Assembly: GCA_039189765.1 (NCBI GenBank)
Contig: JBCCYL010000001.1
Coordinates: 32,001 to 96,000, forward strand
Direction: 5' to 3'
Source: Cyanobacteria bacterium P01_F01_bin.150
Lineage (GTDB): Bacteria > Cyanobacteriota > Cyanobacteriia > CAKZMO01
DNA length: 64,000 bases
The notes below the pieces were generated by a model that did no database searches, was not told where the DNA came from, and saw only the letters and a program-made list of their open reading frames with translations. Positions 19,982 to 64,000 of the stretch are shown here, in pieces; position 1 is the stretch's first letter, and each line of letters starts with the position of its first letter. Both the position numbers and the translations under genes were made by a program.

Positions 19982-22900
19982 CTACAAATCCGCTAGCAGA
20001 TCATCTAATTCGCCCTGGCTAAGCGACATTTCCGGGAAGTCAGAGGGGGTATAGCCTCCCGCATCTGGATCGCAACAGTGGTCAATCAGTCGCCTTAGGT
20101 AGTCCATAACCGACTCTGCCACTTGATAAACGGTTTCTTTTCGATGCAACCCATTGCTATAGGACCAATCCAATCGCAAGCGCCCTCCTGTGACTAAACC
20201 ATTGATTTCCAGAATTACGCCGCGATCGCCCCTAGGACTTCGCAATGATCCTGCTGACAGTTGAGAGGGCTTTAGAAGCACATCATCAGACCACAATGCG
20301 TCTGTCTGTCCCAAGTAGTTAAACCGCACAGGCGACAACGACTTAGAACCGCTTAACCCGATACCATCTGTATTGAAGGCCATCAAATCCTGCCCCGCAT
20401 CCAGATAGCGCCAAAGCCCATATCCAATCCCCTGATTAGGAATTTCACGGAGTTGCTCCTTAACACTCTTGAGAATTATTCCCAATTCTTTCGACTGTAA
20501 TCGATTTAACACCACTGGAAATAGGCTTGTCAACCACCCTACAGTACGAGACAAATCAACACTATCTGTCAACAATTCACGCCCATGGCCCTCCATTTCG
20601 ATGACCAGCGCCTCTGATTGGCTCCAATCAGTTAATCCCATCATTAGCGCCGTTAACAATGCATCATTAATCTGAGTTTGATAGGCACCAGGGACCTTAT
20701 GCAGTAGGGCATTAGTCTCCTCCTGCGTCAGTGTCAAAGATATAGTTGAACTATCCATAACTCGATTTGAGCCATCTTGCATGTCCAGCGGCAGCGTTCG
20801 AGAATAATCCGTCAACTGACGATGAATTTCAGTCCAGTACTGTCGTTCTTGAACAAACTGATTCGATTGAATATAGTCTTGAAGCGTCTGAGACCACTGG
20901 GGTAACGACATCGATTTAGGCGGTAAGACCCCCTCTAGCTCCCCCTTGGTAAGGGGTAGGATCGGAGTCTCTCCCCTTGGCAAGGGGGGATTAAGGGGGG
21001 GGGATTGCCCCTGAGCCAGATCTCGATAAATCTGCTGAAGATCGCCCAGAATAATGCGCCACGACAGCCCATCCACCAGTAAATGATGCAAAGCAATAAG
21101 GATTTGATCCGTATTTTGCCCTGTCTCAAATACCGCCACACGCATTAATTCGCCAGTCGCCAAGCTAAAGCCTGATTGTAAAGTCGCACTCGTTTGCTCA
21201 ATAACTACAGCCTGCTGCTCTGGCAACACCGTCGTTAGGTCAATATGGGTAACAACATCAGGAACCTTCTCCACAATCACCTGCTGCCAACCATTACTTC
21301 CTCTAATAAACTGCGATCGCAACCCGTCATGGTACTGCAACAACTGATAAACCGCCTGCCGCAATATCTGAGGCTCTATCGGCTCCAGACTTTCAAACAT
21401 AATCGCCTGATTCCAATGATGGGCCTCGGCAAACTCTTGCTCAAAGAACCAGCGCTGAATCGGGTTCAAAGGCACAGATCCAACAACCAGCCCCTGCTCT
21501 GCCTGCAACATTAGCTCAGAAGACTCCAACGCCGCCAGCTCCGCAATCGTCTGATACTGGAATAGCTGCTTGGGAGCCAAATGAATGCCCACCTGACGAG
21601 CTTTAGCGATCGCCTGAATCGCTAAAATTGAATCTCCACCCAGCGCAAAAAAATTATCGTGGATGCCAACCTGCTCCAGCCCCAGCAAACTACGCCAAAT
21701 CTCAGCTAGCTGTCCCTCTCTTTCAGTCTGAGGCTGAACGCTTTCACTGCTCTCCCCAGCAATATTTGCCTCTCGTTCAGGAGCCGGAAGCGATCGCCGA
21801 TCAATCTTGCCATTCGGCGTTAACGGCAGCGCATCTAATATCATAACCGTAGAAGGCACCATATAGTCCGGTATGCAACGTTGGAGATGCTTCTTCAATG
21901 CAGAAGGCGTTGCATCCTCTGCGTTCTTGACAACAACATACGCTACCAACTGCTGATGCTGATTTTCTTTATCCATCCAGGGATTAACCACCGCTTGGGC
22001 GACTCCTGGATGCTGACGTAGTACTGCCTCAATTTCGCCTAGCTCAATCCGGAAGCCCCGAATCTTCACCTGATGGTCCAGTCGCCGCAAATATTCGATA
22101 TCGCCATTAGGACGATAGAGGACGCGATCGCCCGTTTTATATAGGGTCAGGGAACCAGATGCGCCCAGATCCCGGGGTTCTTTGCGTAACGTTTGCCCAG
22201 TAGCAGAGATTTGATCAGAACCCCGGGATCTTTGCATGAACGGATTGGGGATAAAGCGATCGCCCGTCAAATCAGGACGATTTAAATACCCCCGAGCAAC
22301 CCCCGCCCCTGCCAAGTAAAGCTCTCCCGGAACTCCTACAGGCACGGGCTGAAGATGTCGATCAAGAATATAAGCTTGGGTTCCAGTAATAGGCTGCCCA
22401 ATCGGAGGAGTTGCTGATTTTGGATTTTGGATTTTGGATTTTGGTTGAGGAGTTGGCGCACTCCGGTCCCCCTCTTGAGAGGGGCTAGGCTTCGACGTGA
22501 GCGAAGCCGAACGGGTGGGTTCATCCTTCTGCCTTCTGCCTTCTGCCTTTACTTCTGCCTTCTGCCTTCTGCCTTCTGCCTTTTTAGCGCCTTCCGCCTT
22601 TACTTGTGCTCCCGTTGAATAGGTCGTATCTTCTGATGGCCCGTAGAGGTTATAAACCGCTTGAATATGGGGCTGTTCATAAAGCTGATTGACCAAGGTT
22701 TGGGGCAGTGGTTCTCCTGCTAGATTGACCGTTGTCACTGTTGAGGGGATGCCGTTGATGGCCAGTAGTGCCCTTGCCGCTGAGGGAACAGTATTGATAA
22801 GGGTAAGGCCAGCATCTTCGCCTAGCTCCGGCAATTGCAGGACATCCTCAACCAACACCACCGTTCCACCTACGCTCAGGGGAACAAACATTTCAAATAC

Positions 22901-25900: not shown

Positions 25901-28900
25901 CACCAACATCGGATCGCTATCCTGCCATCGCAGCACCACAACCGCCTGCTGAATCTGAGGATGCTGCCCCAACGCCACCTCAATTTCCCCCAACTCAATC
26001 CGAAAGCCCCGCAGCTTCACCTGAAAATCCAGCCGACCCAAATATTCCAAAATGCCATCTTCGCGATAGCGAACGAAATCACCAGTTTTATAGAGAGTTG
26101 GAGAGTTAGAGAGTTGGGGAATTGGGGAGGTTCGGTTCCCCTCTTGGGAGGGGCTAGGGGTGGGTTCTTCTGCCTTCTGCCTTCTGCCTTCTGCCTTAAA
26201 TTCTGCCTTTTGAACAAATCGCTCACTCGTCAATTCCGCTCGATTTAAATACCCGATCGCCACCCCAGCACCGCCAATATACAGTTCCCCAGGAATACCC
26301 ACTGGCACAGGCTGAAGATAGGCATCAAGGACATGGAGTTCAGTGTTGGCGATCGCCCTCCCAATCGGAACCGCAGCTTTACCCTCGACATTCGTAGCCG
26401 TCACCTGATGACACAGCGACCAGATCGTAGTTTCTGTGGGACCATACATATTCCACAGAGACTGGCTTTTGGGCAGTAACTCCGCTGCCAATGGCGTATC
26501 TAGAGCCTCTCCACCACACAGCACTCGTAAATTTGATTTCCCTTGCCAACCACTCGCCAACAACAATCGCCAAGTTGCAGGAGTCGCCTGCATCACCGTA
26601 ATATCGTGCTGGTTGAGGAGGGAAAAGAGGCGATCGCCATCCCTCACATCCTCCTGTGAAGCAATCACCACCTGCCCACCACATACCAGAGGTAAAAATA
26701 GCTCCAGAGCCGCAATATCAAACGAAAAAGTCGTTACCGCCAGCAGTTTATCTTTAGCCTCAAACCCCGGAGTATCCGTCATCGATTGCAGCAGGTTAGC
26801 CAATGCCCCATGGGAAATCTGCACACCCTTGGGATTCCCTGTAGAACCAGAGGTGTAGATGGTGTAGGCGATTTTGGATTTTAGATTTTGGATTTTGGAT
26901 TTTGGATTATCGCTACTCCGATCCCCCTCTTGGGAGGGGCTAGGGGTGGGTTGATTTTGGATTTTGGATTTTAGACTCTCGCCCCTCCGATCCCCCTCTT
27001 GGGAGGGGCTAGGGGTAGGTTCTGCCTTCTGCCCTCTGCCTTCTATCTTATCAACGCCCAGAGTTATGCAATTTTGAATTTTGAACTCTGTTTGCGAAGC
27101 GTCTCCAGAGGAGAAATTTTGACTTTGGGTATTAGAATCTTGGATCAGGGTCTGAATCCCTGCATCTTTGAGAACATATTGAATACGTTCTTGAGGATAG
27201 GTTGGATCAATGGGAACATAGGCGGCTCCTGCTCTATGCGTGGCAAGAAGGGCAATTAGCATATGAAGCGATCGCTCCACACAAACCCCCACAAGGCTAT
27301 CAGGCTGCACCTCCAAGGAAATCAGATGCTGAGCAAGTTGATTAATTTCCTGATTGAGTTGTCGATAAGTGAGATTGAAATTGCCAAACCCAACCGCAAT
27401 CGCGTCAGGAGTCTCCCCCGCCCAATACTCAACCCATCCATGCACAGTTGGCAGAGCCGACGGAGTCTCTTCCCCAACCCCATAACTCCATAACTCCCCA
27501 ACTCCCCAACTCCGTAACTCCCCAACTCCATAACTCCCCAACTGCTCCTTCTCGGCAACAGTCAGCAACGGCAGATGAGCAATCGGCTGATCAAGATCCT
27601 CGACAATCGCTTCTAACAGGGTCTGAAAATGCCCCACCATTCGCTCAATCGTAGAAGCTTTAAATAAGTCGGTATTGTACTCCAGATTACCGACCAGCCC
27701 ATCTGGAGATTCCACCATATCCAAACTTAAATCAAAGCGAGCCGTTTGGTTATCTAGAGGGAGATAGTTGAGGGTCAAATCCGGCAGCTTTAGTTCAGTA
27801 GTTTCGGGAGTATTATGCAGGATAAACATCACCTGAAAAAGGGGGTTTTGATGCAGGTGCCGCTCCGGTTGCAGCACTTCTACTAGGTACTCAAAAGGCA
27901 AATCTTGGTTGGCGTAGGCATCTAGAGTAGTGTCGCGGACTTGAGTGAGGAGCGATCGCACCGTAGGATTGCCCGACAAATCACTGCGAAATACCAAGTT
28001 ATTGACAAACAGACCAATCAGATTAGCCAGCTCTGGACGATTGCGATTAGCAACGGTAGAGCCAATCAGGATATCGGTCTGCCCAGAGTAACGATGGAGC
28101 AAAATCTTCAGCCCCATCAGCAGGGTCATATATAAAGTAGTGCCCTGATGACGGCTTAGTTCATTAAGCTTCTGGGTCAGAGTCTTGGGCAATGAAAACG
28201 ACAGCATTGCCCCATTAAAGCTTTGCACCATAGGCCGTGGAAAATCCGTCGGTAACTCTACGCTGAGGGGCGGCTGAGCAAGCTTTTGTTTCCAGTAGTC
28301 GAGCTGGTGCTGGCAGCGATCGCCTTTTAGCCACTGCCTCTGCCATACGGCATAGTCAGCATACTGGATAGGTAAATCAGCAAGTCCTGCTCCCGGTTTA
28401 TCTAGTTTTATTGCCCCATAAGCCCTTCCCAACTCCTGAATCAGCGATCGCATTGACCAATAGTCGGAAATAATGTGATGCAGTGTGCATATAAGCAGAT
28501 ATTCTGGTTCACTTCCCTGTAAGGATTTCAGGCGAAAAACCCGAACTCGCAGTAGCGGTCCCTCAGCTAAGTCAAACGGTCGAGCCGCTTCAGTTTGGAT
28601 TATCGTTTGAACTGCTCGGTCTTGCTGTTGTCGACTTTCCCACTGGTCTTCTCCAGGCATTTCTTCAATGGCCAAGCTCAGATTCTGAGTCGCCATAACT
28701 TCTTGCACTGGTTGTTCATCCACCACCGTAATCCGAGTGCGAAGGATTTCGTGGCGTTGAATAAGGATATTAAAGCTCTGCTCCAGGGCCGCAATATCCA
28801 ATTGGCCCGTCACTCTAAAGGCCGCTGGTAGATGATAGGCCGCTGATCCAGGCTGGAGCTGATCCATAAACCACAGCCGCTGTTGGGCAAACGATACTGG

Positions 28901-32000: not shown

Positions 32001-35000
32001 TGGGCTGCTGGACCGCACGGTTGAAAAATAGGCCGTGCAGTAGATTGGAGAGGTCGTTGGGTGTTGATCGTTGGGTAGAGTCAACATCTCCATCCGCCGC
32101 TGGCAGAAGGGCTACAGTGGTAGCGTTTAGATCTTGTAGACACTGGCGCTGATGTTGGGGGAGGCGATCGGGGAGCAGTTGATTGGAACGAGGGTTGTCC
32201 CAAAGAAGGGATTCAGGTGCAGCAAGTACGTGGAGTAAGTCCTTGTAGGCTGCAAACATATCGTCAAGGAGACAATCTGGGAAAAGATCTTCAATGGCAT
32301 CCCAGTTAAAATGCAGTGCTCCGCCAATTTCTGAAACCTGATGATCGAGATAAACTTGGGATGTTTGACTGAGGCTGTAGACAATCTCGGACTGCCAGGG
32401 GCGATCGCCCTTTGCCTCGCCTAAATCCTGGGTCAAAACGCTGGTGAAGACCACAGGCATTAGTGCCCCAGTGCGCTGTTGCTGACGCTGGGCTAGTTCC
32501 CGCAGCACCTGCACACCGCTAACATAGCGATGTTCTAAATCTTGCCAAAGCTGATCTTGAATTCCTTGGGCTAAATCACCAAAAGACTGGTTCGCCTTTG
32601 TATGAATTGCCAACAGCACCGATGAGGTAAAGTCACCCACTAATCGATTCACGTCAGGATGAAAGGGAAGACGGTTAAATAGAGTCAGGTTTAGCGTAAA
32701 GCTAGACGGCTGGCTCCAAGTATTAAGAATATCCGCAAATGCCGCCAGCAATACACCAGAAGGCGTCACACCAAACTTTGCTGCCCGTTGCTTAATAGCC
32801 TGCCAAGCTTCCGGAGCTAACGTACCCGATCGCCGCACAAATCGCGGATTTTCAATCCGGTCAGGGCGCTGGGCCAAGGGCAACTGAGGCGCTGGTGGCA
32901 ATGTATCCAACCGCTGCTGCCAATAGTCCCAGGATTGACGATAGGTTTCGGAATCTCGAAATGCCTCTTCTGCTAGCACATAATCGCGGAAGGTTACATC
33001 AATAGGAACCTGAGGTAGCTTGGGCTGAAGCAGATTCTGGGCCAGCTCCTGAGCAATGAGTTGAGCACTCCAGGCATCTCCCATCAGCACGTCAAAGCTA
33101 ACGTGGAATCGAATACGGTCGCCCAATTCTCCATTTTGCGAGGGTAAAAGTGACGCTTGGATATCAAACAGAGGATATCGATCCGTGGGAATAATTTGAT
33201 GGGAGAGGCGATCGCGCATTGCCATCAGCTCTGTCTCGACTTGTGATGGAGGAAGCGATCGCAAATCCGTTGTCTGGATTTTATACGGCGGCACCTCAGC
33301 TAACACCCGCTGTTGCCCATCCGCCTGCACCACCACCCGCAACATATCGTGGCGATCGATTAAGCGCTGAAATGCAGATTCTAGCTGAGCCACCGTTAAT
33401 CCTACTGTCTCAATTTCTCGATAGCCGTGGGTGGAAATATTGCCCAGCTCAAAGGCCTCATTTCGCCCAATCCAGTAGGCATGCTGGATATCCGTTAAGG
33501 GGAATGGTTCGTGGCGACTGGCACGAACCGGAGTAATTTCGGGCAGCTCAACAGCAACTATATTTCTTGCTTCAAGAGATGCAGCCCCATCATTAAGGAA
33601 TTGGAGACCGTTAATTTGTTCCGTAAGTTGAGCCACCGTCGGGTACTGAAACAACAGCCGCAGAGGAATCGACTGATTAACTTGCCGACTGACCTGGCCC
33701 ATTAGCTGTAGTCCGAGCAGGGAATGGCCTCCCAGCTCAAAGAAATTATCGTAAATTCCGACCGCGTCAACTTGGAGGGTGGTTTGCCAGATATGGGCGA
33801 TCGCCTCCTCTAACTCAGTCCTCGGTGCAATGTAATCATTTTCGCTCATCCGCTCAGTCGAGGGAGACGGCAGCGCCCGCCGATTAATCTTGCCGTTAGG
33901 CAATCGTGGGAATTCCTCTAGCAGCATCACTATCCCAGGCACCATAAAGGAAGGCAGCTGTTTAGAAAGAAATCCCTGTACCTCAGCAGTAGAAGGCTCC
34001 TCCCCATCCGTTGGAATCACATAGGCAATCAGACGCTGAGACTGCAACACTTGCGCTTGCTCAGAATTGTCTTGTGGATTGGATAAAACTCGATCGACCT
34101 GAACAATGTCATCCTGAACTTGGGGATGCTGCCGCAACACCGCCTCAATTTCTCCCAGCTCAATGCGATAGCCCCGCACCTTCACCTGCTGATCTAACCG
34201 CCCAAGAAACTCAAGCTGACCGTCTGGGCGATAGCGTACGAGATCGCCAGTTTTGTAAAGCTTTTGGTCGTAGCTTAGATCCCAGGGTTCTAGGTAACCA
34301 TTTGTGGATTGCTCAGATAACTTTAAAGAACCCTGGGATCTGGCGTCTGGGCGATCCACAAATGGGTTTTGAATAAATCGCTCTTGGGTCAGTTCAGGAC
34401 GATTGAGATAGCCACGGGCTACTCCTGCTCCACCTAAATACAGCTCCCCTGGAATACCAACAGGGACGGGCTGTAAATAGCGATCGAGCACGTAGGCTTG
34501 AGAATTGGCAATGGGACGACCTATCGAGGGACTTTGGGTTTTCCGGTCCCCCTCTTGGGAGGGGCTAGGGGTGGGTTGATTTTGGATTTTGGATTTTGGA
34601 TTTTGGATTTCAGATGCATAGGATGTGTTAGACGATAGCCGTAATGCATCATTCGGGATTTTTGCAAACGTTGAATACGTTGTATCCTCTGAAGGGCCGT
34701 AGAGGTTATAAACGCTTTGAATATGAGGGCGTTCATATAGCGCTTGCACTAGTGACGCAGGCAGGGGTTCACCGGCTAGGTTGACGGTGCGGATACTGAT
34801 GGGGAGAGTATGGTGCTGAATAAGCTGGGCGATCGCACTTGGCACCGTATTAACCAACGTCACCTGATCGGCAGCAGAGAGTTCCGGCAGATCTAGAACA
34901 TTTTCGGCCAAAATAACCGAGCCGCCTGTGGTGAGGGGAAGAAAAATTTCAAATACGGATAAGTCAAAGCAAATAGAAGTTGAGGCCAAAACGCCAGCGG

Positions 35001-37365
35001 TAGACTCTGGGTCAAATGTCTCCTGTGCCCATTGCAACATGGCCACCGTATTACGATGCTCGATTGCCACCCCTTTGGGTTTGCCTGTGGAGCCAGAAGT
35101 GTAAATAACGTAGGCCAGATCGGAAGAATTATTGGTGGGTAGTAGAGAACTGGAGCGAGACTGCATGGAAATAAGTTCTTGCTCTTCGCTGTCGCTAAGG
35201 TCAATAAATGACCCCTGCCAGTTTTCAAAATTAGGTTTGGCTCCGCTGCCGATAATCATGGTCATATCAGCATCAGCAACCATAAATGCAATTCGCTCCT
35301 GGGGATAGGCTGGGTCCATTGGGACGTAGGCACCACCTGCCTTGAGGATTGCCAGAAGAGCAACAATCATTTGGGGCGTTTGGCTTTGCCATGCCTTCGG
35401 CAAACGCTCCAAATAAACCCCCACCGTCAGCTCTTCGCCGCGATTCGATGGAGAATCAATCGTTTGAATATAGTGAGCAAGTTGATTTGCCGATTGATCA
35501 AGCTGACGGTAAGTGTAAGGAATATCTTGATAAATCACAGCGATCGCATCTGGCGTACGCTGAACCTGCTGCTCAAACAACCCATGAATGGTCAGCTTAT
35601 CAGCGCTGACCTCGTTATCATAAACACGCTGGGTCTGATTCCAGTCCACCAGCAACTGCTGTCGTTCGGTTGGGGTCAATAACGATAGTAGGCCAATAGG
35701 CTGATCGGGGTTTGTGGCGATCGCCTCCAACAACTGCTGAAAATGCTCGATTAAGCGAGCAATCGTCGTCGCATCAAACAGGTCGGTGCTGTACTCTATC
35801 TGACCGCTAATTCCGGCCTCTGAATCCTGTAAATTAAGCCGCAGTTCGTATTTAACCGTGTGATTGTCCAGCGGTAGGCGCTCCACCGTCATATCTTTCA
35901 ATGCCAACGGTTTTACGGTGGCAAGCTGGAGATCAAACTTAGCTTGGAACAGCGGCGACATCTGGCTAATATTCCGCTCTGGATTTAGCACTTCCACGAG
36001 CTTTTCAAAGGGCAATGCCTGATAGGTAAAAGCCCCTGCCACGGTTTGCTTCACACGCTGGAGATAATCCCGAAAGCTGGGATTGCCAGTGCCATCTAGC
36101 CGCAACACTAGCGTATTGACCAGCAGCCCAATCAATCCTTGGGTTTCGGTACGATCGCGATTAGCAATATCCGTACCAATTGTCACATCATCCTGCTGGC
36201 TGTATCGATGCAGCAAAATGCCAAAGGCTGCTAGCAGCAGAATAAACAACGTTACCCCTTCCTTTGCCGCCAGCTTTTTCAACGCTTGAGACTGGACTGG
36301 GGAGATGGCGATCGCCCTCTGGTCACCCCGATAGGTAGGCACAGGGGGATAGGGCCGATCCGTTGGCAGTTGAAGCATTGGCACATCGGCAAGCTGCTTA
36401 GTCCAATAGGCAATATGGTCCTCCAGCACCTTCCCCTGTAACCACTGCCGCTGCCACACGGCCCAATCACCATATTGAATTGCCAGTTCAGGGAGGGGCG
36501 ATTGCCGTGCACCACTCCCGTTAGCGTCATCATCCAAATAGGCGTTATACAGCAGGGTCATTTCCCTCAGAAATACCCCCACTGACCACCGATCTGAAAT
36601 AATATGATGCACCGTAATCAACAGCACATGGTCTTGTTCACTGACCCGCAAAAGCTCCAGCCGCAGCAGAGATTGGGTTAAATCAAACGGCTTTTGGGCA
36701 GCGGCGATCGCTAAACACTCAAGGGAATTTTGGATTTTAGATTTTGGATTTTGGATAGAGGGTTGGGGTGTTAGATCCCAGGGTTCTTGGTGATGATTTG
36801 GCGATTCTAAAGAGATTTGGCTAGAACCCTGGGATCTGCGCGTCAGATCGACTTCCGTAATTTTTAATGTAATAGGTTCGGCTGGCAACACCACCTGAAT
36901 CGCCTGTTGCCCTCGAAGTCCCGAAGCATCCAGGGCAACCCCATCACTCCCCAACTCCCCAACTCCATCACTCCCCAACTCCCCAACCTTCACCACCGTC
37001 CGCAATGTCTCATGACGTTGCACAAGCTCCGTCAACGTCTGCTCCAACACGGCAATATCCAACGCTCCCTTTAACCGCAGCGCACTAAAAACGTTGTAGG
37101 CAAAGCTGTCAGGCTCTAGCTGTTGGATAAACCAAAGCCGCTGCTGGGCAAACGATAGGGGAGTGGGGCGATCGCCCGATCGCCGTTTAATCTTGCGAGA
37201 TGCCTGAGCCTTATTACTCGTCTTGTTACTTGTTTGGCGTTTAGCTTGACGCTGCTGTAAGCGCTTTTCAAACAGCGCCCGCTGTTCCGGAGATAGATTT
37301 GCTAGCTGCTTTTCAAGCTCGGCAGATGCTAGATTTGTGGACACGTTACCCTTTTGCTTGGTCAT
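29068..37365 (-). CDS. NRPS: C - A (Ala) - PCP - Cy - A (Cys, interrupted by Ox) - PCP; thiazole-forming
   Basis: 2765 aa. HHIISDRWS, code DLFNNALTYK. Cy domain FPLTDIQHAYW, DVLMGDAWS and PVVFTS. Code DLYNLSLIWK (Cys). FMN oxidase PKYRYASAGSLYPVQ inserted in the A C-terminal subdomain. Confidence 0.95.
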   Translation of the reverse strand: MTKQKGNVSTNLASAELEKQLANLSPEQRALFEKRLQQRQAKRQTSNKTSNKAQASRKIKRRSGDRPTPLSFAQQRLWFIQQLEPDSFAYNVFSALRLKGALDIAVLEQTLTELVQRHETLRTVVKVGELGSDGVGELGSDGVALDASGLRGQQAIQVVLPAEPITLKITEVDLTRRSQGSSQISLESPNHHQEPWDLTPQPSIQNPKSKIQNSLECLAIAAAQKPFDLTQSLLRLELLRVSEQDHVLLITVHHIISDRWSVGVFLREMTLLYNAYLDDDANGSGARQSPLPELAIQYGDWAVWQRQWLQGKVLEDHIAYWTKQLADVPMLQLPTDRPYPPVPTYRGDQRAIAISPVQSQALKKLAAKEGVTLFILLLAAFGILLHRYSQQDDVTIGTDIANRDRTETQGLIGLLVNTLVLRLDGTGNPSFRDYLQRVKQTVAGAFTYQALPFEKLVEVLNPERNISQMSPLFQAKFDLQLATVKPLALKDMTVERLPLDNHTVKYELRLNLQDSEAGISGQIEYSTDLFDATTIARLIEHFQQLLEAIATNPDQPIGLLSLLTPTERQQLLVDWNQTQRVYDNEVSADKLTIHGLFEQQVQRTPDAIAVIYQDIPYTYRQLDQSANQLAHYIQTIDSPSNRGEELTVGVYLERLPKAWQSQTPQMIVALLAILKAGGAYVPMDPAYPQERIAFMVADADMTMIIGSGAKPNFENWQGSFIDLSDSEEQELISMQSRSSSLLPTNNSSDLAYVIYTSGSTGKPKGVAIEHRNTVAMLQWAQETFDPESTAGVLASTSICFDLSVFEIFLPLTTGGSVILAENVLDLPELSAADQVTLVNTVPSAIAQLIQHHTLPISIRTVNLAGEPLPASLVQALYERPHIQSVYNLYGPSEDTTYSTFAKIPNDALRLSSNTSYASEIQNPKSKIQNQPTPSPSQEGDRKTQSPSIGRPIANSQAYVLDRYLQPVPVGIPGELYLGGAGVARGYLNRPELTQERFIQNPFVDRPDARSQGSLKLSEQSTNGYLEPWDLSYDQKLYKTGDLVRYRPDGQLEFLGRLDQQVKVRGYRIELGEIEAVLRQHPQVQDDIVQVDRVLSNPQDNSEQAQVLQSQRLIAYVIPTDGEEPSTAEVQGFLSKQLPSFMVPGIVMLLEEFPRLPNGKINRRALPSPSTERMSENDYIAPRTELEEAIAHIWQTTLQVDAVGIYDNFFELGGHSLLGLQLMGQVSRQVNQSIPLRLLFQYPTVAQLTEQINGLQFLNDGAASLEARNIVAVELPEITPVRASRHEPFPLTDIQHAYWIGRNEAFELGNISTHGYREIETVGLTVAQLESAFQRLIDRHDMLRVVVQADGQQRVLAEVPPYKIQTTDLRSLPPSQVETELMAMRDRLSHQIIPTDRYPLFDIQASLLPSQNGELGDRIRFHVSFDVLMGDAWSAQLIAQELAQNLLQPKLPQVPIDVTFRDYVLAEEAFRDSETYRQSWDYWQQRLDTLPPAPQLPLAQRPDRIENPRFVRRSGTLAPEAWQAIKQRAAKFGVTPSGVLLAAFADILNTWSQPSSFTLNLTLFNRLPFHPDVNRLVGDFTSSVLLAIHTKANQSFGDLAQGIQDQLWQDLEHRYVSGVQVLRELAQRQQQRTGALMPVVFTSVLTQDLGEAKGDRPWQSEIVYSLSQTSQVYLDHQVSEIGGALHFNWDAIEDLFPDCLLDDMFAAYKDLLHVLAAPESLLWDNPRSNQLLPDRLPQHQRQCLQDLNATTVALLPAADGDVDSTQRSTPNDLSNLLHGLFFNRAVQQPNTPAIITSDGTLTYQDVSDRALTIAQRLLSQDIQVGDCRRHGVHEVSRREAKRVAIVMEKGWEQIVGAIAILTVGAAYVPIAPDLPIERIHQLFQQTQIKYVLTQPQLMAAIDWPDNIVPIPVDDSVGKNLPNVAEIAALGFLASTQPTGQNSTSKIQNSDLAYILYTSGSTGTPKGVMIDHRGAVNTILDINQRFGVGVRDRVLALSSLSFDLSVYDIFGLLAAGGAIVLPDAGSDRDPIHWADLIQTHGVTVWNTVPALMHLLVQNSAEKPTPNPSQEGDRSASTPQLPNSLTLQRESKIQNLKSKIPNSLRLVLLSGDWIPLSLPEQITTTFPNANVISLGGATEASIWSIFHPIDAVDPAWTSIPYGRPLGNQQMYVLNQALESCPVWVSGHIYIGGIGLAQGYWQNEEKTSTSFIRHPETGDRLYRTGDLGRYLPDGTIEFLGRDDFQVKVNGYRIELGEIETALNHHPMIKDVVVTAVGDNPQQQRLVAYVVPEEEVNLQKNSSADTASKLEFKLQQAGVRQFSSSNATKVQLHKPAVETDVYIRRQSHRRFLDTAVGLEPFSQWLGSLMSRPLPQSPLPKYRYASAGSLYPVQAYVYVKPGRMTDLAPGYYYYHPVEHCLIQVSEDSQQPVKGYGTNQEVFDQGAFAVFLVGELDAIAPIYDDKSRDLCLLEAGYISQLLMETAPDFDLGLCPIGALEFAPFQQGFELSESHCLLHSFVGGAIDPEWSQQWQPQVSQSSVNKGGGSGLPSSQGGVGGGDPLAAVQEQLREFLQQTLPSYMVPTHFVPMESLPLTANGKVDRNALPDPTHLMGQQSVEMVAPRTEMEEAIAQIWQQSLQLDGPVSVHENFFNLGGNSLSATQVLAQLRQVFPVELSIRQFFERATIADHAEMIQHLLDTSPAQSESESAEATLEPIGRAPQRSEISDTSLSEPLSEPLPADINLDELSEQDMNAMLQQLLADEASSQEGES
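31846..31890. mobile_element. 45-nt nested short dispersed repeat inserted in a HIP1 site, in frame
   Basis: Flanks GCG (31843-45) and ATCGC (31891-95) rejoin to GCGATCGC. The insert encodes CRRHGVHEVSRREAK. Confidence 0.75.
34277..34341. mobile_element. 65-bp inverted-repeat element inside the Ala A domain
   Basis: AGATCCCAGGGTTCT-N35-AGAACCCTGGGATCT. Confidence 0.75.
35379..35402. mobile_element. 24-nt short dispersed repeat in a degenerate HIP1 site, in frame
   Basis: Coding strand GCGTT^TGCCGAAGGCATGGCAAAGCCAAA^CGC. Same outer sequence as the 31846-31890 insert. Confidence 0.7.
36773..36837. mobile_element. 65-bp inverted-repeat element inside a C domain
   Basis: AGATCCCAGGGTTCT-N35-AGAACCCTGGGATCT. 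Confidence 0.75.
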
Positions 37366-37368
37366 GGT

Positions 37369-42426: not shown

Positions 42427-42698
42427 ATAGGTGAATTTTAGATTTTGGATTTTAGATTTTGGATTTTAGATTTTAGTTAGGGAGTTTTACCTGGTTCCGA
42501 GACTCTGGCTGGGAGTCCAAACGGGAGACTCTGGCTCCCTAGCACCTCTGGCATTGAGACAGAGCTTTTGGTGAATATTTTCAAACGAAGTCTGAGAAAA
42601 AGGGGAGATTTTGTCTTCTGCCCTCACTGGATTGTTGGGTTTCCTATCGTCAACCCAACCTACGCGGCCTTCTTCCTTCTTCCTTCTTCCTTCTTCCT
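42427..42698. repeat. Intergenic repeat patch: TTTT(A/G)GA array, GAGACTCTGGCT element, GTAG REP-like palindrome, CTTCCTT array
   Basis: Read directly. REP-like GTTGGGTTTCCTATCGTCAACCCAACCTAC at ~42634-42663. Confidence 0.85.
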
Positions 42699-51600: not shown

Positions 51601-54600
51601 GCATCCAAGTGCATAAATATGCTGGGAATCATATACGCTGGCAAAGATTCTGCCAGAAACTCACGCAACTCTGTGGGTTTTAGATTTTGGACTTTAGATT
51701 TTGGAGTTTTGGGAGAGGATCGGGGAGTTGGGGAGTTAGAGAGTTGGGGAGTTGAGGAGTTAGAGAGTTGTGGAGTTGAGGAGTTAGAGAGTTGAAGCGA
51801 TTCTGCTTCTGCCTTCTGCCTTCTGCCTTCTGCCTTAAATTCTGCCTTCTGCCTTCTGCCTTCTGCCTTAAATTCTGCCTTTACTTCTCCTTCTGGTACA
51901 AAATACGCCACCAGCATCGGATCGGTATCCTGCGATTGCACGACCACCACCGCTTGCTGCACTTGGGGATGATGGCTGAGAGCTACCTCAATTTCACCCA
52001 GCTCAATTCGAAATCCTCGCAGCTTTATTTGAAAATCGAGCCGTTCGAGGTATTCTAGGGTGCCATCTGGACGATAACGAACGCGATCGCCCGTTTTGTA
52101 AAATCTGGAGATACTAGCGTCAAGAGAACGGGATTCCGCGATCAGATCCCGGGGTTCTTTATAATCATCTTTGCTACGAGCTAATGTTTGGATAGAACCC
52201 CGGGATCTCTGCCCCCCGGGATCCAATACAAAGCGATCGACCGTCAGCTCCGGTCGATTCAAGTACCCGATCGCCACTCCCGCACCGCCGATATATAGCT
52301 CTCCAGGAACTCCCACTGGAACAGGCTGTTGATACTGATTAAGGACTTTTATATCCGTGTTAGCGATCGCTCTCCCAATCGGCACCGCCGTTCCTTCCAC
52401 ATCCGCTGCCGTAACTTGGTGACATAGCGACCAAACAGTAGTTTCCGTGGGTCCATACATATTCCAGAGCGATTGACTCTTACCCAATAGTTCCGCAGCC
52501 AAGGGTGTATCCAAGGCTTCACCACCGCACAGTATTCGCAGGTTTGATTTTCCGTTCCAGGCGTTTGCCAACAGCAGTCGCCAAGTGGCTGGGGTTGCCT
52601 GCATTACGGTGATGTCATGGTCATTTAGCAATGTTTTGAGGCGATTGCCATCCCGCACATCATTCTGGGAGGCAATTACTATCTGACCACCGCATACTAG
52701 CGGTAAGAAAAGCTCTAATCCTGCAATATCAAAGGAAGGAGTTGTTACCGCAAGAAGGCGATCGCCCGCATCAAATCCCGGTACCTCTGCCATTGATTGT
52801 AGAAAATTAATCAGAGCATGGTGGGGAATTTGCACTCCTTTTGGTTTGCCTGTTGAACCGGAGGTGTAGATGGTGTAGGCGATTTTGGATTTTGGAGGGG
52901 GAGTTGGGGAGTTGGAGAGTTGGAGAGTTAGAGAGTTAGAGAGTTGGGGAGTGGATGTCGGATAACGGCGAATTACATCTGTATCAATATTAATACATTG
53001 CAACGCACCCTTAAACTCCTGAACTCCTAAACCCCCAAACTCCTGAACCCTTGAACTCTTAAACTCCTGAACAAGGGTTTTGATACCCGCATCCTCGATC
53101 ACATAGTTAATTCGATCTTGAGGGTAGGTTGGATCGATGGGAACGTAAGCAGCTCCAGCTTTATGAACCGCCAATAGGGCAATAAGCATATGGGAGGAAC
53201 GTTCCAAACATACACCCACTAGCTCATTAAGCTGCACGTCCACAGATAATAGATGATGAGCAAGTTGATTGGCCTGCTGATTTAGTTCCTGATAGGTTAG
53301 CGATTGGCTATCAAACACGATCGCAACTGCATCCGGCGTTTCCTCCGCCCATTTCTCCACCCACTCATGCACCAGACGCATATACTGAGCATCTTCCGTC
53401 GCATTTTGAAAAAACTGGGCACTGTCCACCATTGCCCATTCCTGCTGCTGCCGTTGCTCTGTATCCGTCAGCAACGAGATATTTGCCAGGGTGTGGGAGG
53501 ATTGATCACTCGTCAATGCCTCAGCAAATCCAGTCAGAATGGTCTGAAGATGGCCCCAAAGCAGAGAAATAGGGAATCCGGAATCATTATTTTCACTAAA
53601 CCATTGCCCATCATAGGTTATGCGAAACGATAAACTCTCTCCTGGAATAATGGAAAGAGTAAGCGGATAGTTTGTTCGCTCAAATCCTTTTAAATCCCTA
53701 ATGGCTAGCTGACTATCCCACCCTTTCAGCACAGTCTCAATGGACATGGGATAGTTTTCAAAGACGATTAGACTATCAAATAGAGACACACCTCGGAGTA
53801 CATCACTACAGGCTTGAATATCCACCAAAGAACTGTAGGAATATTGCTCCCGTTCCCGCTGTTCAATTTGCAGCGTTTGCAGCCAGGGCACCAGTTCCGC
53901 CTCTGGAGATAGATTTACCCGTACGGGCAGTGTGTTGATAAATAGGCCAATAATTGATTCCACTTGGGGTAACGTGGGCGGACGCCCCGATACCGTTGCC
54001 CCAAATACCACCTGATTGTCACCGCTGTAGTGACTCATCAACAAACTCCATGCCCCTTGCACAAGAGTATTTAGGGTCAAGTGGTGGTGCTTGCATCCCT
54101 CCTGTAGCGTTTGGGTAATGGATGGTGAAAGACTGGCGTGATATTCAAAGTAATCTACCCCCCTTCGTCCCCCCTTGGTATTGGCGGAGCCTGTTCGTAG
54201 AACGTAGGGGGAGACTGGGGGACGGAACTGAGTTGGAGCAATAATCCCATTAAGCTGCTGTTGCCAAAAGGTTTGGGCCTGATCAACATTCTGCTGCTGG
54301 AGCCAAAGAATATAGTTTCGATAATCAGGAGAGGGAGTTAACGTAACCTGTCGTCCTTGCAAAAGGCCATCATAAACCGCCATCACGTCTCGTAAAAGCT
54401 GGGCGTTACACCATCCATCCATTAGGGCATGATGATGACTCCAAACAAATATAAAGTCTTCTTCTGCTAGTTGAATTAGCGTACAGCGCATCAGGGGCGC
54501 TTGGTCTAGGACAAATCCTTGGGCGCGATCGCCTTCCAAGTAATTTTCTAGCCTTGTCTCTAAATTTGCCTCTACTTTTGCTATTAAATCCTTATTTGAC

Positions 54601-54977: not shown

Positions 54978-57900
54978 TTATCGTCGCCTCCTTCTCTGTC
55001 GTCCTGAAGTCTGGTTAGAACTCTGGGGAACAGAAGAGCGAGACGGTAAGCTTTGATTTGTCCCTTGGTTTGCCCCTGAGTTTGCCCCTTGGTTTGCCCC
55101 TTGGGCACTACTTTTCTGCTGATTTACTCGATTTAACACCTGGTCTAACTGCTGCTGATTTAACCGAGCAGCTTCAAAATCAGAAGGCGTGTACTCTTTT
55201 GCAGTTGCGCTATCGTTCTGCTCTAGTCGAGTCTGGCCATATCGCAGCAGCGATCGCAGCACAGACATATACCGCTGCACAAGCGGCTCAATATCCTGTT
55301 GGGCATACTGTTCTCTGCTGTAATTCCATTGTGTTTGCAATTGACCGTCCCGCACAAAGCTGTTGATTTCCAGCGCATATAGGCGGGGCATATTCGGGTC
55401 CACGGTAGTCCCTGGCGAGATATTTGAAATCCCCTTCACCATAGAGTCCGCCGCAGAACGCAAATCTAACTGGCCCAAATAATTGAACTTAATCTTGGGA
55501 GGTCGAGGCAACGTCACCGACTGACGCACATTAGTGTCAGGATGAAGATAGCGAAGCAACCCGTACCCTGTACCATTTTTAGGAATCTGACGGAGCTGTT
55601 CCTTAACTGACTTTAAAGCGTCTCCGGGTTGTCCTCCTCGATTTAGCGTCAGCATCACTGGAAATATGGACGTAAACCATCCCACCGTCCGCGATACATC
55701 CAGCCCTAAATTATGACTGTCATTGATGTGATCGAAAACATCACGTCCGTATCCTTCCAAATCAATAACTAAAGAATCCGATTGCCCTAGGCCTATCGTC
55801 TGACTCCATTCCATCGAACGTCCTAACGTCTGTACTAAAGCTGTCAGCATCACCTCGTCCACACGGGTATTAAATACAGACGGCATTTGGGTCAAAAGAT
55901 TCTGAGTCTCGACGTTATCCAATGTGGCGGTTACTTGCTCCGCTGTGGATTGTAGAGGCTGCACCATTGGACTTTGAAGACTTGCATTCTGATAGGTTTG
56001 AGAAATTTCCTCCGCTAATTGCTGCCAATAGCTTCTTTGCTCAAGGATTTGTGATGATTGAGCGTGATGAACTAGCGCCTCTCCCCATGCTTGGAACGAT
56101 GTGGTTTTAGGAGGGAGAGCAATAGTCTCTGCCCCGTCTTTGCCTATCTCACTTTGATCTTTGCGATTATCCTGCTGCTGCCGATAAGCCAACTCCAAAT
56201 CCGCCAGCAATACTCGCCACGACAGTCCATCTACAACTAAATGATGAACAATAATCAATAAACAAGGCTTCTGATTTGCTCCCCTCTGGAACAATACACA
56301 GCGACACAGGCAAGCAGATAAATCGAGGCTAGCTTGGAGATCGTTAGAGAGGGCGGCGATCGCTTCCTCCTGCCCCGCCAATGGAAGCCCCGTCAAATCC
56401 TCTACCAAGAACGTATCTTCACCAGACCCAACCGTTCCGTAGGTTGGATTAGCGACAGCGTAACCCAACAGAGTGTCTTGCGCTGTAGATAGCTTTGTTG
56501 GGTTTCCTTCGTCAACCCAACCTACGTGGCTGAATCGTAATCGCAATGCATCATGGTGCTCAACCATTTCAGTCCATGCCTTAGCAAGATACTCTGTCTC
56601 AATTTCAGACTGTAGTTCCAGTAATAATGATTGGTTGTAATGATGGGGATTAGGTAGATTTTGCTCAAAGAACCAGTGATAGATCGGTAGCCACTCTTGA
56701 ACCCCTGCGATCGCCCCCTGCTCCGGCATAGCCATTTGAGACGGACCCGATTCTGCTGCCACTGCCGCCAATTCTGCCACCGTTTGATGCTGGAATAGCT
56801 GGCGCGGCGTAATCGTCAAACCCGCTTGCTTTGCTCTAGCAATAATTTGAATACTCAGGATGGAGTCTCCACCAAGTTCAAAGAAATTATCGCAAGTGCC
56901 AACTTTAACCCCTAATACCTCTGACCAGATATCAACCAATACCTTTTCAGTATCGGTCTGAGCTTCTTGTCTACTCTGGCCTGAATTGCGACTTTGAGCC
57001 TCCCAATCAGGCGTTGGTAGAGCCGTACGATCGATCTTGCCATTTGCCGTCAGTGGAAATGACTCAACAGGAACGATCGCCGCAGGAATCATGTAGGAAG
57101 GAAGACAATCCTTAAGGAAGGATTTTAGATTTTGGATTTTGGTGGAGGAGTTGGGGAGTTGGGGAGTTGGGGAGTTGGGGAGTTGGGCGTTGAGCGGTGG
57201 GACATGCCGGTCCCTCTCTTGGGATGGGTTAGGGGTGGATGGATTTTGGATGGTCTTTTGCTGAGACGCAAACGTAATGTGGGCGACCAGATGGGAACCA
57301 CGTTGATCATCGTGCTGAAGTGTGGCGATCGCCCCCTCCACCTCAGGATGACGCACCAGCGTTGCTTCAATCTCACCCAGCTCAATCCGGAAACCGCGCA
57401 GCTTAACCTGATTGTCGATTCGTCCCAGGTACTCAATCGTGCCATCTGGACGGTAAAAAGCGCGATCGCCTGTCCTGTATAAAGTTAAGGAGTTGGAGGG
57501 TTGGGGAGTTGGAGAGTTTAAATTTTGGATTTTAGATTTTGGATTCTGGACATTTTGTCCCTCTGCTCCCTTGCTCCCTTGCTCCCTTGCTCCCCTGCTC
57601 CCTTGCTCCCTTGCTCCTTCTGCCTTCTGCCTTCTGCCTTCTGCCTTTAAAAACGGATTCGGAATAAAGCGATCGCCCGTTAAATCAGGTCGATTATGAT
57701 ACCCTCGCGCCACCCCCGCGCCACCGATATAGAGTTCGCCTGGAATACCAACCGGAACTGGATTAAGGTAGCGATCAAGAATATAAAGCTGAGCATTCGC
57801 TATCGGGCGACCAATCGGTACATTGCCTGACGAACTGCTCGCTGATGAAGCCGCAGACGCATCATATACGCAGCATCCCACCACCGTTTCCGTCGGCCCA

Positions 57901-60761: not shown

Positions 60762-60887
60762 TTCCTACCCTGTAATTCCACAACGTATTATGCGATCGCG
60801 CCATGTCCCCTTCCTAATTCTTGGTAACGGATTACACTATCTTTAATCCGCTCTGCAAGATGCTTACAAAAATCTCATTAAATTTAC

Positions 60888-61949: not shown

Positions 61950-62117
61950 TATTTTTTCCCTTTCAATATCACTAATCTTAATTAGGTACAAACTCAACCT
62001 ATAAAACAATTTATTTAACTAATCACTCATATTCCAAAATCCAAAATTGACCCTCTCCTAGCCCCTACCAGGAGGGGAACCGAACCATCCAAAATCCAAA
62101 ATCTAAAATCCAAAATT

Positions 62118-64000
62118 CTAAGTCTGCCCTCCTTGTTCCTGAAGCTGGGCTGTGACATCATCCAAATCCATATTTTCGACTTGTGATAGAAGGTCAGCAA
62201 TTTCATTCTGTTCCTGCTCGGTTGTTAATTGTGGGGGAGGGCTGTTGGGTTTCCTATCGTCAACCCAACCTACGGAGTCGGGGTCTTCGTCAGTGCCACC
62301 TTCTACCTTCTGCCTTCTGCCTTCTGCCTTTTGAAAGTCGTCGCTGAGGTTCTCCTCAATAATCTTGGCAATCCCTGCCACTGTGGGCGACTCAAACAAA
62401 AATTCTCGCATCGGTAAGTCTACATTGAATTCGTTGCGGAGGCGAGATACCGCTTGAATCGCCAAAAGTGAATGACCGCCCAGCTCAAAGAAATTATCGT
62501 GAATTCCCACCTGCCCTATTCCCAGGAGTTCTTGCATAGCCTCGGACACCGCCGTTTCAATGGAATTGCGAGGGGCAACATAGGTGGTGGAAAGCTGAGG
62601 TCGCTGGTGAGCATTGGCCGTGCCGTTATTGTTAAAACCATCTGGATCCAAATCCTTGGTAACGGCTAGCTTGCGAGCATCAATAATCCGCTGAGGTAAG
62701 TCAGTGGGAGATGTGGCAATCTGCATTGGTCCAGGCAGGCCAGACGATTGAATAATCTGGGAAAAGAGGCGATCGCATACGTCATCAACTTCACTCGGCG
62801 TCATCGCCAAATCCACTAATGCCGATCCGGTTATGGCACTCTCTGAATCCACTTCATCATCCCGGCAGGCATCCCAATTAACGCTTAGCCACTGGGGACC
62901 TGTATCTAGCATTGCTGAACGATTTCGCTCTGCTGCCAACGCATCCATAAAATAGTTGGCTCCGCTATAGGCCGAGAATCCCACACCACCCACAACCGAT
63001 GATAAGGATGATTGCAGCCAAAAGAACTCTATGGCCCGATTGCCCAAAGCCTGTTCCAGACTCAACAATCCCTGCATTTTAGATTTAAACTGTTTAGCGA
63101 TCGCCTCAGGCGTTAAATCAGCAATCAGACAGCTCGACTGCCCTCCCATCACTCCAGCATGGACGACGCCCTGAATCGGGCCAAGGATCTCTTCTGCTTG
63201 GGTCAGGAGCGATCGCACCCTATCCGTATCGGTCAAATCCGCACTAAAAAACTCGTATTCTACCTCCTGAGCCGCCAACCCCTGAAGCCGACGAATACAA
63301 TTACTCACCGGATCGCGCTGCCCATGTACCCCCAACCACGGCTCCCACTGGTCCGGCATAGGCATCCCTTCGCGACCAAGCAAAATCAATTTAGCCTGGT
63401 GGGTCTGGGCAAAGTACTGGGCAAAGTACAAACCAAGACCGTCAACTAGATCGCCAGCAATCAGAAGAGTTGGGGAGTTGGGGAGTTGGGGAGTTAGGGA
63501 GTTGGAGGCGTAGGGATTTTGGATTTTAGATTTTGGATTTTGGATAGAGAGTTGGGACGTAAGATCCCAGGGTTCTTGGGAATGCTTTGGCTGCTTTAAC
63601 GAGGTTTGGGCAAAACCCTGGGATCTGGACGCGCTTTCATCTATCTTTAGTAGAAGCGGCGTGTAGCTCTGAACCCACCGACAAAACCCTCGATAGGCAA
63701 CCACGCACGTTCTATCTGCCGTATTGGAGGGTAAAGTGATGTCGGTGAGAATCGAAGCGATCAGGGCTTTTGGAATAGAGCCATTGCCCGATGGACTATT
63801 AATGTCAATCACTTGGCAGCGGATGTGGGGATATTCCTGGGGAATCACCTGGCAGGCTCCTAGAAGAGGAGCGTTGTGAGGGTTTAAGTCTTCTGTTCCT
63901 GTAACATCGTGGATTGGAGGTGTTAGAACCGTGATAGTAACTTCAGAGGGTGTGGATAAAGCTTTTTCAGCCGTTGCACCGTTGCCATTGCCGTTGGAGA
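62118..64000 (-). CDS. 3' part of a type I PKS module (KR - ACP), truncated by the right edge
   Basis: I checked that the frame stays open from 63848 to the edge (..IHDVTGTEDLNPHNAPLLGACQVIPQEYP..). KR: AGDLVDGLG, GVVHAG, SSLSSVVGG..AYSGAN. ACP GGHSLL. Paralogous to the 37369-42426 PKS. Confidence 0.93.
   Translation of the reverse strand, partial: SNGNGNGATAEKALSTPSEVTITVLTPPIHDVTGTEDLNPHNAPLLGACQVIPQEYPHIRCQVIDINSPSGNGSIPKALIASILTDITLPSNTADRTCVVAYRGFCRWVQSYTPLLLKIDESASRSQGFAQTSLKQPKHSQEPWDLTSQLSIQNPKSKIQNPYASNSLTPQLPNSPTLLIAGDLVDGLGLYFAQYFAQTHQAKLILLGREGMPMPDQWEPWLGVHGQRDPVSNCIRRLQGLAAQEVEYEFFSADLTDTDRVRSLLTQAEEILGPIQGVVHAGVMGGQSSCLIADLTPEAIAKQFKSKMQGLLSLEQALGNRAIEFFWLQSSLSSVVGGVGFSAYSGANYFMDALAAERNRSAMLDTGPQWLSVNWDACRDDEVDSESAITGSALVDLAMTPSEVDDVCDRLFSQIIQSSGLPGPMQIATSPTDLPQRIIDARKLAVTKDLDPDGFNNNGTANAHQRPQLSTTYVAPRNSIETAVSEAMQELLGIGQVGIHDNFFELGGHSLLAIQAVSRLRNEFNVDLPMREFLFESPTVAGIAKIIEENLSDDFQKAEGRRQKVEGGTDEDPDSVGWVDDRKPNSPPPQLTTEQEQNEIADLLSQVENMDLDDVTAQLQEQGGQT
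63562..63626. mobile_element. 65-bp inverted-repeat element inside the PKS KR region
   Basis: AGATCCCAGGGTTCT-N35-AAAACCCTGGGATCT (one arm mismatch). Confidence 0.7.

Follow-up and report, generated by a model that had tools for sequence, protein, structure and literature searches.

The window analysed here is a stretch of 64,000 nucleotides (64 kb) from Cyanobacteria bacterium P01_F01_bin.150 (contig JBCCYL010000001.1, positions 32,001 to 96,000). Its nonribosomal peptide synthetase (NRPS) genes lie on the minus strand and are interspersed with copies of a small repeat, built of two inverted 15-nt arms that enclose an interior of either 35 nt (long form) or 3 nt (short form). With a probability of roughly 0.65, we read this element as a family of the REP/REPIN type (REP, repetitive extragenic palindrome; REPIN, hairpin-forming pair of REPs), that is, small hairpin-forming repeats linked to a REP-associated tyrosine transposase (RAYT). 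It matches that class in its inverted invariant ends, its bounded spacing with a drifting spacer, its compensatory arm changes and its tandem clusters.

Copies of the repeat in NRPS genes

Searching the window with the pattern AGATCCCRGGGTTCT-N-AGAACCCYGGGATCT gave six exact long matches (starting at 22167, 34277, 36773, 43567, 48496 and 52144), and the same exact pattern produced no match in 100 dinucleotide-preserving shuffles of the window. A seventh long copy, at 63562-63626, carried a single right-arm mismatch (AAAACCCTGGGATCT), and three exact 33-bp forms (15+3+15) completed the set of ten that the original prediction had located (Table 1). The interior measured 35 nt in all seven long copies. 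Minus-strand translation passed through all ten copies without a break in frame, giving RS(Q/R)G(S/F)-x11-xEP(W/R)DL for the long ones and DPRVL(K/E)EPWDL for the short ones. As also predicted, translation placed five of the long copies in one loop of the adenylation domain (A-domain), between (D/E)RF(I/V) and YKTGD. The prediction had further given the long copies one frame and one orientation; the common frame held for 7/7, and profile-based orientation placed six on the coding strand and left the copy at 34277 ambiguous. Orientation is readable from the interior only, because the arms are reverse complements of each other. A scan of the whole window with the Rfam covariance models returned no match at E <= 1.

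The loop in question is the one between motifs A6 and A7. Among the 26 A6-A7 loops matched by pattern in the genome, 18 had 9-16 residues, and all eight on the window's contig had 34-61 residues. Five of these eight expanded loops hold the element and three lack any trace of the arms; the latter are composed of (GAAGGCA)n, read as KAEGRRQKAE, together with another small palindrome (ACCCACCCCTAGCCCCTCCCAAGAGGGGAAC) and (AACTCYC)n. The NRPS copies belong to a sub-family whose interior is of the CAAATCTCT type and are regularly flanked by simple tracts. The A6-A7 loops tolerate and collect selfish repeats of several kinds. Two pairs of paralogous loop copies shared interiors (24/35 and 30/35 identical positions), with 30/30 and 29/30 identical arm positions and flank identities of 0.57-0.79, and the interiors of other loop pairs were unrelated (9/35, 13/35 and 14/35). 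Some loop copies were probably inherited by module duplication and others were probably independent insertions.

In X1, the only public sequencing run covering the window, contigs ended inside the short palindromes at 46693-46725 and 48214-48246, and short-read assemblies of this gene cluster fragment because of such breaks. The X1 contigs also showed repeat-driven joints without an element-sized skip; as contigs only, they are uninformative on excision. No RNA run was listed for the window.

Genome-wide copies and anatomy of the element

The source assembly (GCA_039189765.1; 10.64 Mb in 350 contigs, HIP1-rich) contained 119 pairs of exact arms, with interiors of 3 (50 pairs), 34 (7), 35 (46), 36 (14), 37 (1) and 135 nt (1). 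With up to two mismatches allowed per arm, 173 pairs were found, comprising 73 short, 95 long and five composite copies. The long interiors measured 33 (1), 34 (11), 35 (64), 36 (17), 37 (1) and 38 nt (1); 92/95 thus had 34-36 nt, and more than half of the interior positions differed between contigs. Five other genomes held 63 long copies, one of them a nested artefact, and the remaining 62 interiors had 33 (6), 34 (2), 35 (12), 36 (15), 37 (14) and 38 nt (13); no single length was favoured and, that artefact aside, none of 10-32 or 39-40 nt occurred within the search range of 10-40 nt. The spacing is bounded to about 33-38 nt and not fixed at 35. The invariant 35-nt interior proposed in the original prediction was therefore a property of the window (7/7) and not of the genome (64/95 exactly 35), while the constraint on arm spacing drawn from it stood as a bounded range. 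All 95 long copies lay within 33-38 nt.

Copies were sorted by a rough rule, namely whether a frame free of stops ran through the element for 600 nt or more; these frames were called mechanically and without annotation. Outside such frames lay 47/73 short and 80/95 long copies, and within them 26/73 and 15/95, so the tie to NRPS and polyketide synthase genes originally drawn did not hold: the element is a genome-wide repeat that appears to be mostly intergenic, with a sizeable minority of copies inside genes, and is not NRPS-specific. On inspection, nine of the in-frame long copies were in convincing genes (the seven of the window, C25:38695 and C260:3588; C numbers denote contigs), four sat in a questionable frame that spans a tandem array, and two lay at the very 5' end of their frame. 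All nine genic copies had a 35-nt interior and one common frame. Of the 34-nt copies, 10/11 lay outside the frames of 600 nt or more, as did every 36-nt copy. That genic copies have exactly 35 nt is explained by frame preservation, and the uniform length in the window reflects frame preservation together with a shared sub-family. Genic copies are best read as survivors that kept the frame and brought in no stop.

Tandem clusters repeated the element together with its flanks, in arrays of seven units on C51, five on C60, four on C6 and nine on contig C314 of the relative G003 (G numbers denote genomes). Most seemingly unpaired arms were degenerate or variant pairs, and nowhere in this genome did a left and a right arm enclose a gene over a kilobase-scale distance. 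Two candidates were accordingly set aside: an autonomous element bounded by the arms, of which none was found genome-wide, and a classical MITE (miniature transposable element with inverted repeats) of a DDE transposon, because no gene was bounded by the arms and neither the single empty site nor the consensus of the flanks showed a duplication.

Each 15-nt arm is itself near-palindromic (AGAWCCCNGGGWTCT), with 12/15 self-complementary positions, and pairing between the arms gives a 15-bp stem closed by a loop of 3 nt in the short form or 33-38 nt in the long form. This stem was present in every fold, at a mean minimum free energy of about -30 kcal/mol as RNA. The interior contributed no conserved pairing to the structure, since a consensus fold of 40 non-redundant copies paired the arms only, on either strand. 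From 64 oriented copies with a 35-nt interior we derived the consensus cGCaA / left arm /.AcataAtCTTTgG..tTg.gCAA.AcacTTTtgc / right arm / GGyCcCc, an asymmetric sequence which shows that the interior is weakly conserved and that the unit reaches past the arms. GCAA or GCCA abutted one side in 31/64 of these copies and GGTC or GGCC the opposite side in 23/64. Between contigs, the arms were 0.94 identical and the interiors 0.42 (0.26 in shuffles); the strong divergence of the interior noted originally stands in that the arms are far more constrained, with the qualification that a weak consensus is kept.

Where the centres of the two arms face each other, the 168 short and long pairs had A-T in 113, G-C in 44 and a mismatch in 11. 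The centre differed by form, being A-T in 71/73 short copies and divided between 42 A-T and 44 G-C in the long ones. Double compensatory changes were scattered elsewhere in the arms, and a variant family (AGAACCCWGGGTTCT) had compensating changes at positions 4 and 12. The short-form loop was TAA or TTA in 46/73. About 25 of the 73 short forms were centred in a larger imperfect palindrome (CTGACTTAAGCCTATTTGGTGGGCC / 33-bp palindrome / AAATCCGCCTTATGTCAGTGACATT; for example C52:2446-2528, C5:114557-114639 and C3:127729-127811), in which the small palindrome is nested as part of a longer mini-element.

The conservation of the arms in place was assessed on the units of tandem arrays, which were located by their periodicity and so carry less ascertainment bias. 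Within arrays, the diversity per site was 0.021 for arms, not counting the centre, and 0.160 for interiors; for the arrays on either side of the G003 RAYT gene it was 0/1008 and 223/1260, respectively. Five orthologous pairs (arms 150/150, interiors 164/178, flanks about 0.91) were rejected as evidence for arm conservation, because both members of each pair had been found by the exact-arm pattern.

Among 40 relatives, exact pairs were found in G003 (14), G015 (3), G005 (2), G011 (1) and G014 (1), against 118 in this genome, and a class-wide sample had them in 6/251 genomes from two families only. A scan of named records, which allowed a gap of 3-33 nt, missed 35-nt interiors and shows distribution only, listed the palindrome among its matches in records titled Nodosilinea, Phormidesmidales, Leptolyngbya, Leptolyngbyaceae, Shackletoniella, Tildeniella, Elainellaceae, Phormidium sp. 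FACHB-1136 and a "Spirulina" metagenome-assembled genome. A plasmid collection searched with the short form gave no match.

Several comparisons bear on dispersal. A unit of about 108 bp was common to G011 and G015 in unrelated contexts, with an interior identical at 32/36 positions, and G041, G042 and G043 had copies with 34-35/38 identical interiors in unrelated flanks. One intergenic site was empty in G045, held 1.5 copies in G044 and held two tandem copies in G206, the first with decayed arms. In the phosphopantetheinyl-transferase gene on C137, an insert of 11 residues (RSQGSQRTLGS) was absent from the orthologues of G002 and G003; same-genus orthologues had a DNA identity of 67-83%, and this insertion is visible at the protein level only.

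Transposase genes beside the repeat

A candidate for the cognate transposase was found in relatives. L104, a gene of 190 amino acids in G045 with two short copies on each side, scored 81.4 bits on the model NF047646 (cut-off 80), and its only match in a PDB search was the E. coli TnpArep structure 4ER8, in an alignment covering the HUH and catalytic-tyrosine regions (NHYHFLV and YIHLNPVK). Its homologues (Table 1) were 58-67% identical overall, and those of G003 and G014 reached 77.1 and 74.3 bits, just under the cut-off. The arms studied here accompanied 5/7 L104-type RAYT loci in relatives. The original prediction had suggested a transposase bounded by the same arms, and this applies to the related genomes and not to the present assembly, in which no cognate was found.

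RAYT-like genes elsewhere were flanked by sister palindromes of the AGAnnCCnGGnnTCT plan (AGAAACCSGGTTTCT and AGATCTCCGAGTTCT), as at L097 (2328-2391), L105 (475-507) and L203 (G206:C7:34823-34855), in short forms and in long forms with a 34-nt interior. These loci suggest that transposase and repeat co-diverged.

This genome has nine Y1-transposase-like genes, four of which lie within 800 bp of a copy. The only RAYT above the cut-off, at C5:94380-94931, scored 189 bits on NF047646. Both of its sides (C5:94226-95052) carry a repeat family of the form GGTGCATTACGCT...CGTTACGCTAATGCACCCTACG, with 14-mers occurring 11-31 times, and the locus is a second REP/RAYT system within the same genome. Three paralogous RAYT-like genes scored 61-65 bits on the same model, under the cut-off (C3:127832-128623, C76:40348-41151 and C19:10050-10616), with the N-termini MPRQPRDL, MGRQPRDL and MPRKPRIL, respectively. 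A short copy lies 45 bp upstream of where the distant RAYT-like gene on C3 starts, and a long copy about 530 bp upstream of its paralogue on C76; the start-codon region of the C76 gene resembles the right arm with two mismatches. An IS200-like gene at C51:1844-2335 (NF033573, 78 bits), which has inverted repeats of its own (GGCAATTGAAATTGCGGCTA), is followed by seven long copies in arrays with a period of 141-143 bp, and a further IS200-like gene, at C86:26273-26674, has a copy about 730 bp away. The arrays of three and four units within C51:1844-3969 bracket a gap of 656 bp with an opposite-strand pair labelled HicA/HicB-like from its translation.

Table 1. Element copies and element-free expanded loops in the window (open reading frames, ORFs, by window position), followed by L104 homologues in related genomes.
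Feature	Position or genome	Strand	Context
Long copy (15+35+15), G-C centre	22167..22231	-	A-domain A6-A7 loop, ORF 19982-29071
Long copy, A-T centre	34277..34341	interior orientation ambiguous	A-domain loop, ORF 29068-37365
Long copy	36773..36837	-	Near N-terminus of ORF 29068-37365; then AAAATCC-type heptamer repeats (QNPKSKIQN)
Short copy (15+3+15)	40922..40954	.	DPRVLKEPWDL in ORF 37369-42426
Long copy, A/C centre (coding-strand G-U pair)	43567..43631	-	A-domain loop, ORF 42699-54977
Short copy	46693..46725	.	DPRVLEEPWDL in ORF 42699-54977
Short copy	48214..48246	.	DPRVLKEPWDL in ORF 42699-54977
Long copy	48496..48560	-	A-domain loop; preceded by (GAAGGCA)n, translated KAEGRRQKAE
Long copy	52144..52208	-	A-domain loop, ORF 42699-54977; interior matches that of 43567 at 30/35
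Long copy, one right-arm mismatch	63562..63626	-	5'-open ORF 62118-63998; followed by heptamer repeats
Expanded A-domain loop without element	17219..17410	-	(GAAGGCA)n, other palindrome (CCCCTCCC..GGGG), (AACTCYC)n
Expanded A-domain loop without element	26078..26230	-	Composite structure as at 17219-17410
Expanded A-domain loop without element	57465..57680	-	Simple repeats only
L104 homologue	G003		65% identical; between arrays of four and five long copies
L104 homologue	G014		67% identical; arms on both sides
L104 homologue	G015		66% identical, truncated at contig end; short copy 35 bp downstream
L104 homologue	G012		Pseudogene; one arm about 100 bp away
L104 homologues (two)	G044		One with variant palindrome AGAAACCSGGTTTCT; the other a pseudogene without arms

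A probable REP/REPIN-type family and its alternatives

If the element is of the REP/REPIN type, an L104-type RAYT would recognise the folded arms in single-stranded DNA, and a cut beside the foot of the hairpin, possibly on the GCAA/GCCA side by analogy with GTAG, would spread and maintain the unit. Such an enzyme would need only the arms, their complementarity and a rough spacing, so that the interior could drift while its length stayed bounded. Landings in genes would persist only where the frame was kept and no stop was introduced, a filter that would leave 35-nt copies, in one frame, in tolerant loops such as A6-A7. The approximately 168 copies of this genome may be an orphaned population, or the RAYT gene may be unassembled.

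The likeness to published systems is considerable. Bertels and Rainey (2011; PMC3116915) describe REPINs as having invariant ends, set a conserved distance apart around a spacer that is less conserved, as forming tandem clusters and as having one cluster next to the RAYT gene. To the extent of that description, the present family agrees in consisting of short, apparently mostly extragenic palindromes with inverted invariant ends, a conserved distance and a looser spacer, in the compensatory changes of its ends, in tandem clusters that include flanks, and in a cluster by a single-copy Y1 transposase, here in relatives. It differs in its stem, which is 15 bp long and nearly perfect, in its dimorphic loop of 3 or 33-38 nt, the longer of which is unpaired, in a hairpin tag of GCAA/GCCA instead of GTAG, in its genic copies (26/73 short and about nine long) and in the cognate RAYT not being in this assembly. 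As far as the relevant parts of Di Nocera et al. (2013; PMC3733652) go, intragenic REP dimers encode 20-30 residues and have spacers alike in length and not in sequence. The GTAG and CGTC super-families treated there share with our element the dimer spacers, the clusters with flanking DNA, the nesting in longer palindromes and the presence of REPs or dimers within ORFs; unlike them, it has these tags nearly or wholly absent at the hairpin and a stem longer than the 5-13 bp of Table 1 in PMC3733652.

Several results weigh against a RAYT-driven family. At the hairpin foot, GTAG/CTAC occurred in 0/64 and CGTC in 1/64 long copies, and the unpaired interior departs from REPIN spacers, which are described as extending the hairpin. 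Of the seven RAYT-homologue loci, two lack these arms, one having none and the other the variant palindrome. No L104-type RAYT was detected by tblastn in this genome's assembly, where the best matches were 25-29% identical, although a short repeat-flanked gene could have been lost from it, because the smallest contig has 1655 bp; and the sole RAYT above the cut-off is flanked by a different repeat. L104-query searches of G041, G042, G043 and G005 likewise found no such RAYT, and these assemblies contain 112, 61 and 35 exact arms and two exact copies, respectively. At the sites compared, neither a clean target duplication nor an exact boundary of insertion was recovered, and these included an empty orthologous site, a comparison for duplications that the original prediction had proposed; paralogous empty sites of this genome (72-77% identity) were too distant for exact boundaries, and further orthologue searches gave no match or rearranged or paralogous matches. 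No excision or insertion event was observed, and current mobility in this genome is unproven.

The retention of arms where no RAYT was found could also be explained by a service to the host. We consider it unlikely that the arms are, for instance, binding or structural sites for a conserved protein of the cell, or RNA or DNA hairpins with a role in the cell, kept by selection locus by locus and independently of a transposase, with the RAYT loci as mere points of accumulation. Such sites would account for arms about eightfold less diverse than interiors among in-place tandem copies, for the near-identical arms of paralogous NRPS loops despite their diverged interiors and flanks, and for element-rich genome assemblies without a RAYT. 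Their placement, however, is inconsistent (intergenic, in ORFs in several frames, within other repeats, in arrays), presence and absence vary at one site between close species, and degenerate copies exist. Exact pairs are moreover confined to the 6/251 class genomes mentioned above, chance does not readily explain why the arms flank RAYT genes in particular, and the arm match of the orthologous pairs is unusable as support, having been found by exact arms. A related and quite improbable possibility is that the arms are actively kept in genomes without a RAYT (this one and G041-G043), either serving the cell or serviced by an unrecognised enzyme, the two loop sizes acting as a physical ruler. 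The NRPS-loop copies would then be tolerated or used, for instance as points of recombination between modules or of pausing.

Another mobile source is very improbable in our judgement, namely a miniature derivative (MITE, or palindrome-associated transposable element, PATE) of an IS200/IS605-type or other insertion sequence of this genome, moved by the transposase of that sequence. The IS200-like gene on C51 with its seven long copies, the gene on C86 and the four of nine Y1 genes close to a copy speak for it. Yet the C51 gene's own inverted repeats differ from the arms, no gene is bounded by both arms, and none of the five Y1 loci in G041-G043 has arms within 1.5 kb; proximity is in any case weak evidence, because repeats and transposases share repeat-rich intergenic DNA. 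There is next to no chance that the window's copies go back to a single ancestral insertion, or represent a protein motif, that spread solely by duplication of NRPS modules. The two loop-copy pairs with shared interiors and some flank homology, and the grouping of all eight expanded loops in one cluster, are what this would produce, but about 168 copies exist genome-wide in unrelated, mostly non-coding contexts, conservation is at the nucleotide level, synonymous sites included, and other genera have the same arms. The other loop pairs have unrelated interiors, and three paralogous loops hold a different palindrome instead. The genome-wide distribution thus contradicts a single module-duplicated insertion, which the original prediction had listed against itself, and its view that the repeat acts at the level of DNA and not as a protein motif is supported.

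The REP/REPIN type remains our preferred assignment, and the original impression of an unrecognised kind of element was not sustained, the architecture being that of an already described class. Two further groups of repeats invite comparison. Rickettsia palindromic elements (RPEs) are named as intragenic elements in the part of PMC3733652 that concerns us. They and the present repeat are both in-frame genic palindromes, although our family is much smaller and, it appears, lies mainly between genes. RPEs, attributed to the work of Ogata and colleagues in 2000, are reportedly palindromic selfish repeats that sit in frame within protein-coding genes and add a peptide in tolerant regions; they measure about 100-150 bp, and their host is an obligate intracellular alphaproteobacterium. 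The cyanobacterial small dispersed repeats (SDRs) are said to have been described by Elhai and colleagues in 2008 as very small hairpin-forming sequences of 21-27 nt, and no transposase is known for them. They resemble our element as small cyanobacterial hairpins often found amid heptamer tracts and larger mini-elements. A full-text search of one literature library with four exact arm strings found no published occurrence, the SDR families not having been compared by sequence.

Altogether, no new kind of mobile element is revealed here. What is gained is a well-defined REP/RAYT system of thin filamentous cyanobacteria, whose useful peculiarities are its clean two-state loop length, its non-GTAG flank, its occupancy of genes and its apparently orphaned populations. 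For natural-product genomics it brings a caution, in that A-domain loops made of selfish repeats break assemblies and could pass for functional inserts. Repeat-rich genomes seemingly without the transposase are a natural test of whether such a family decays after being orphaned.

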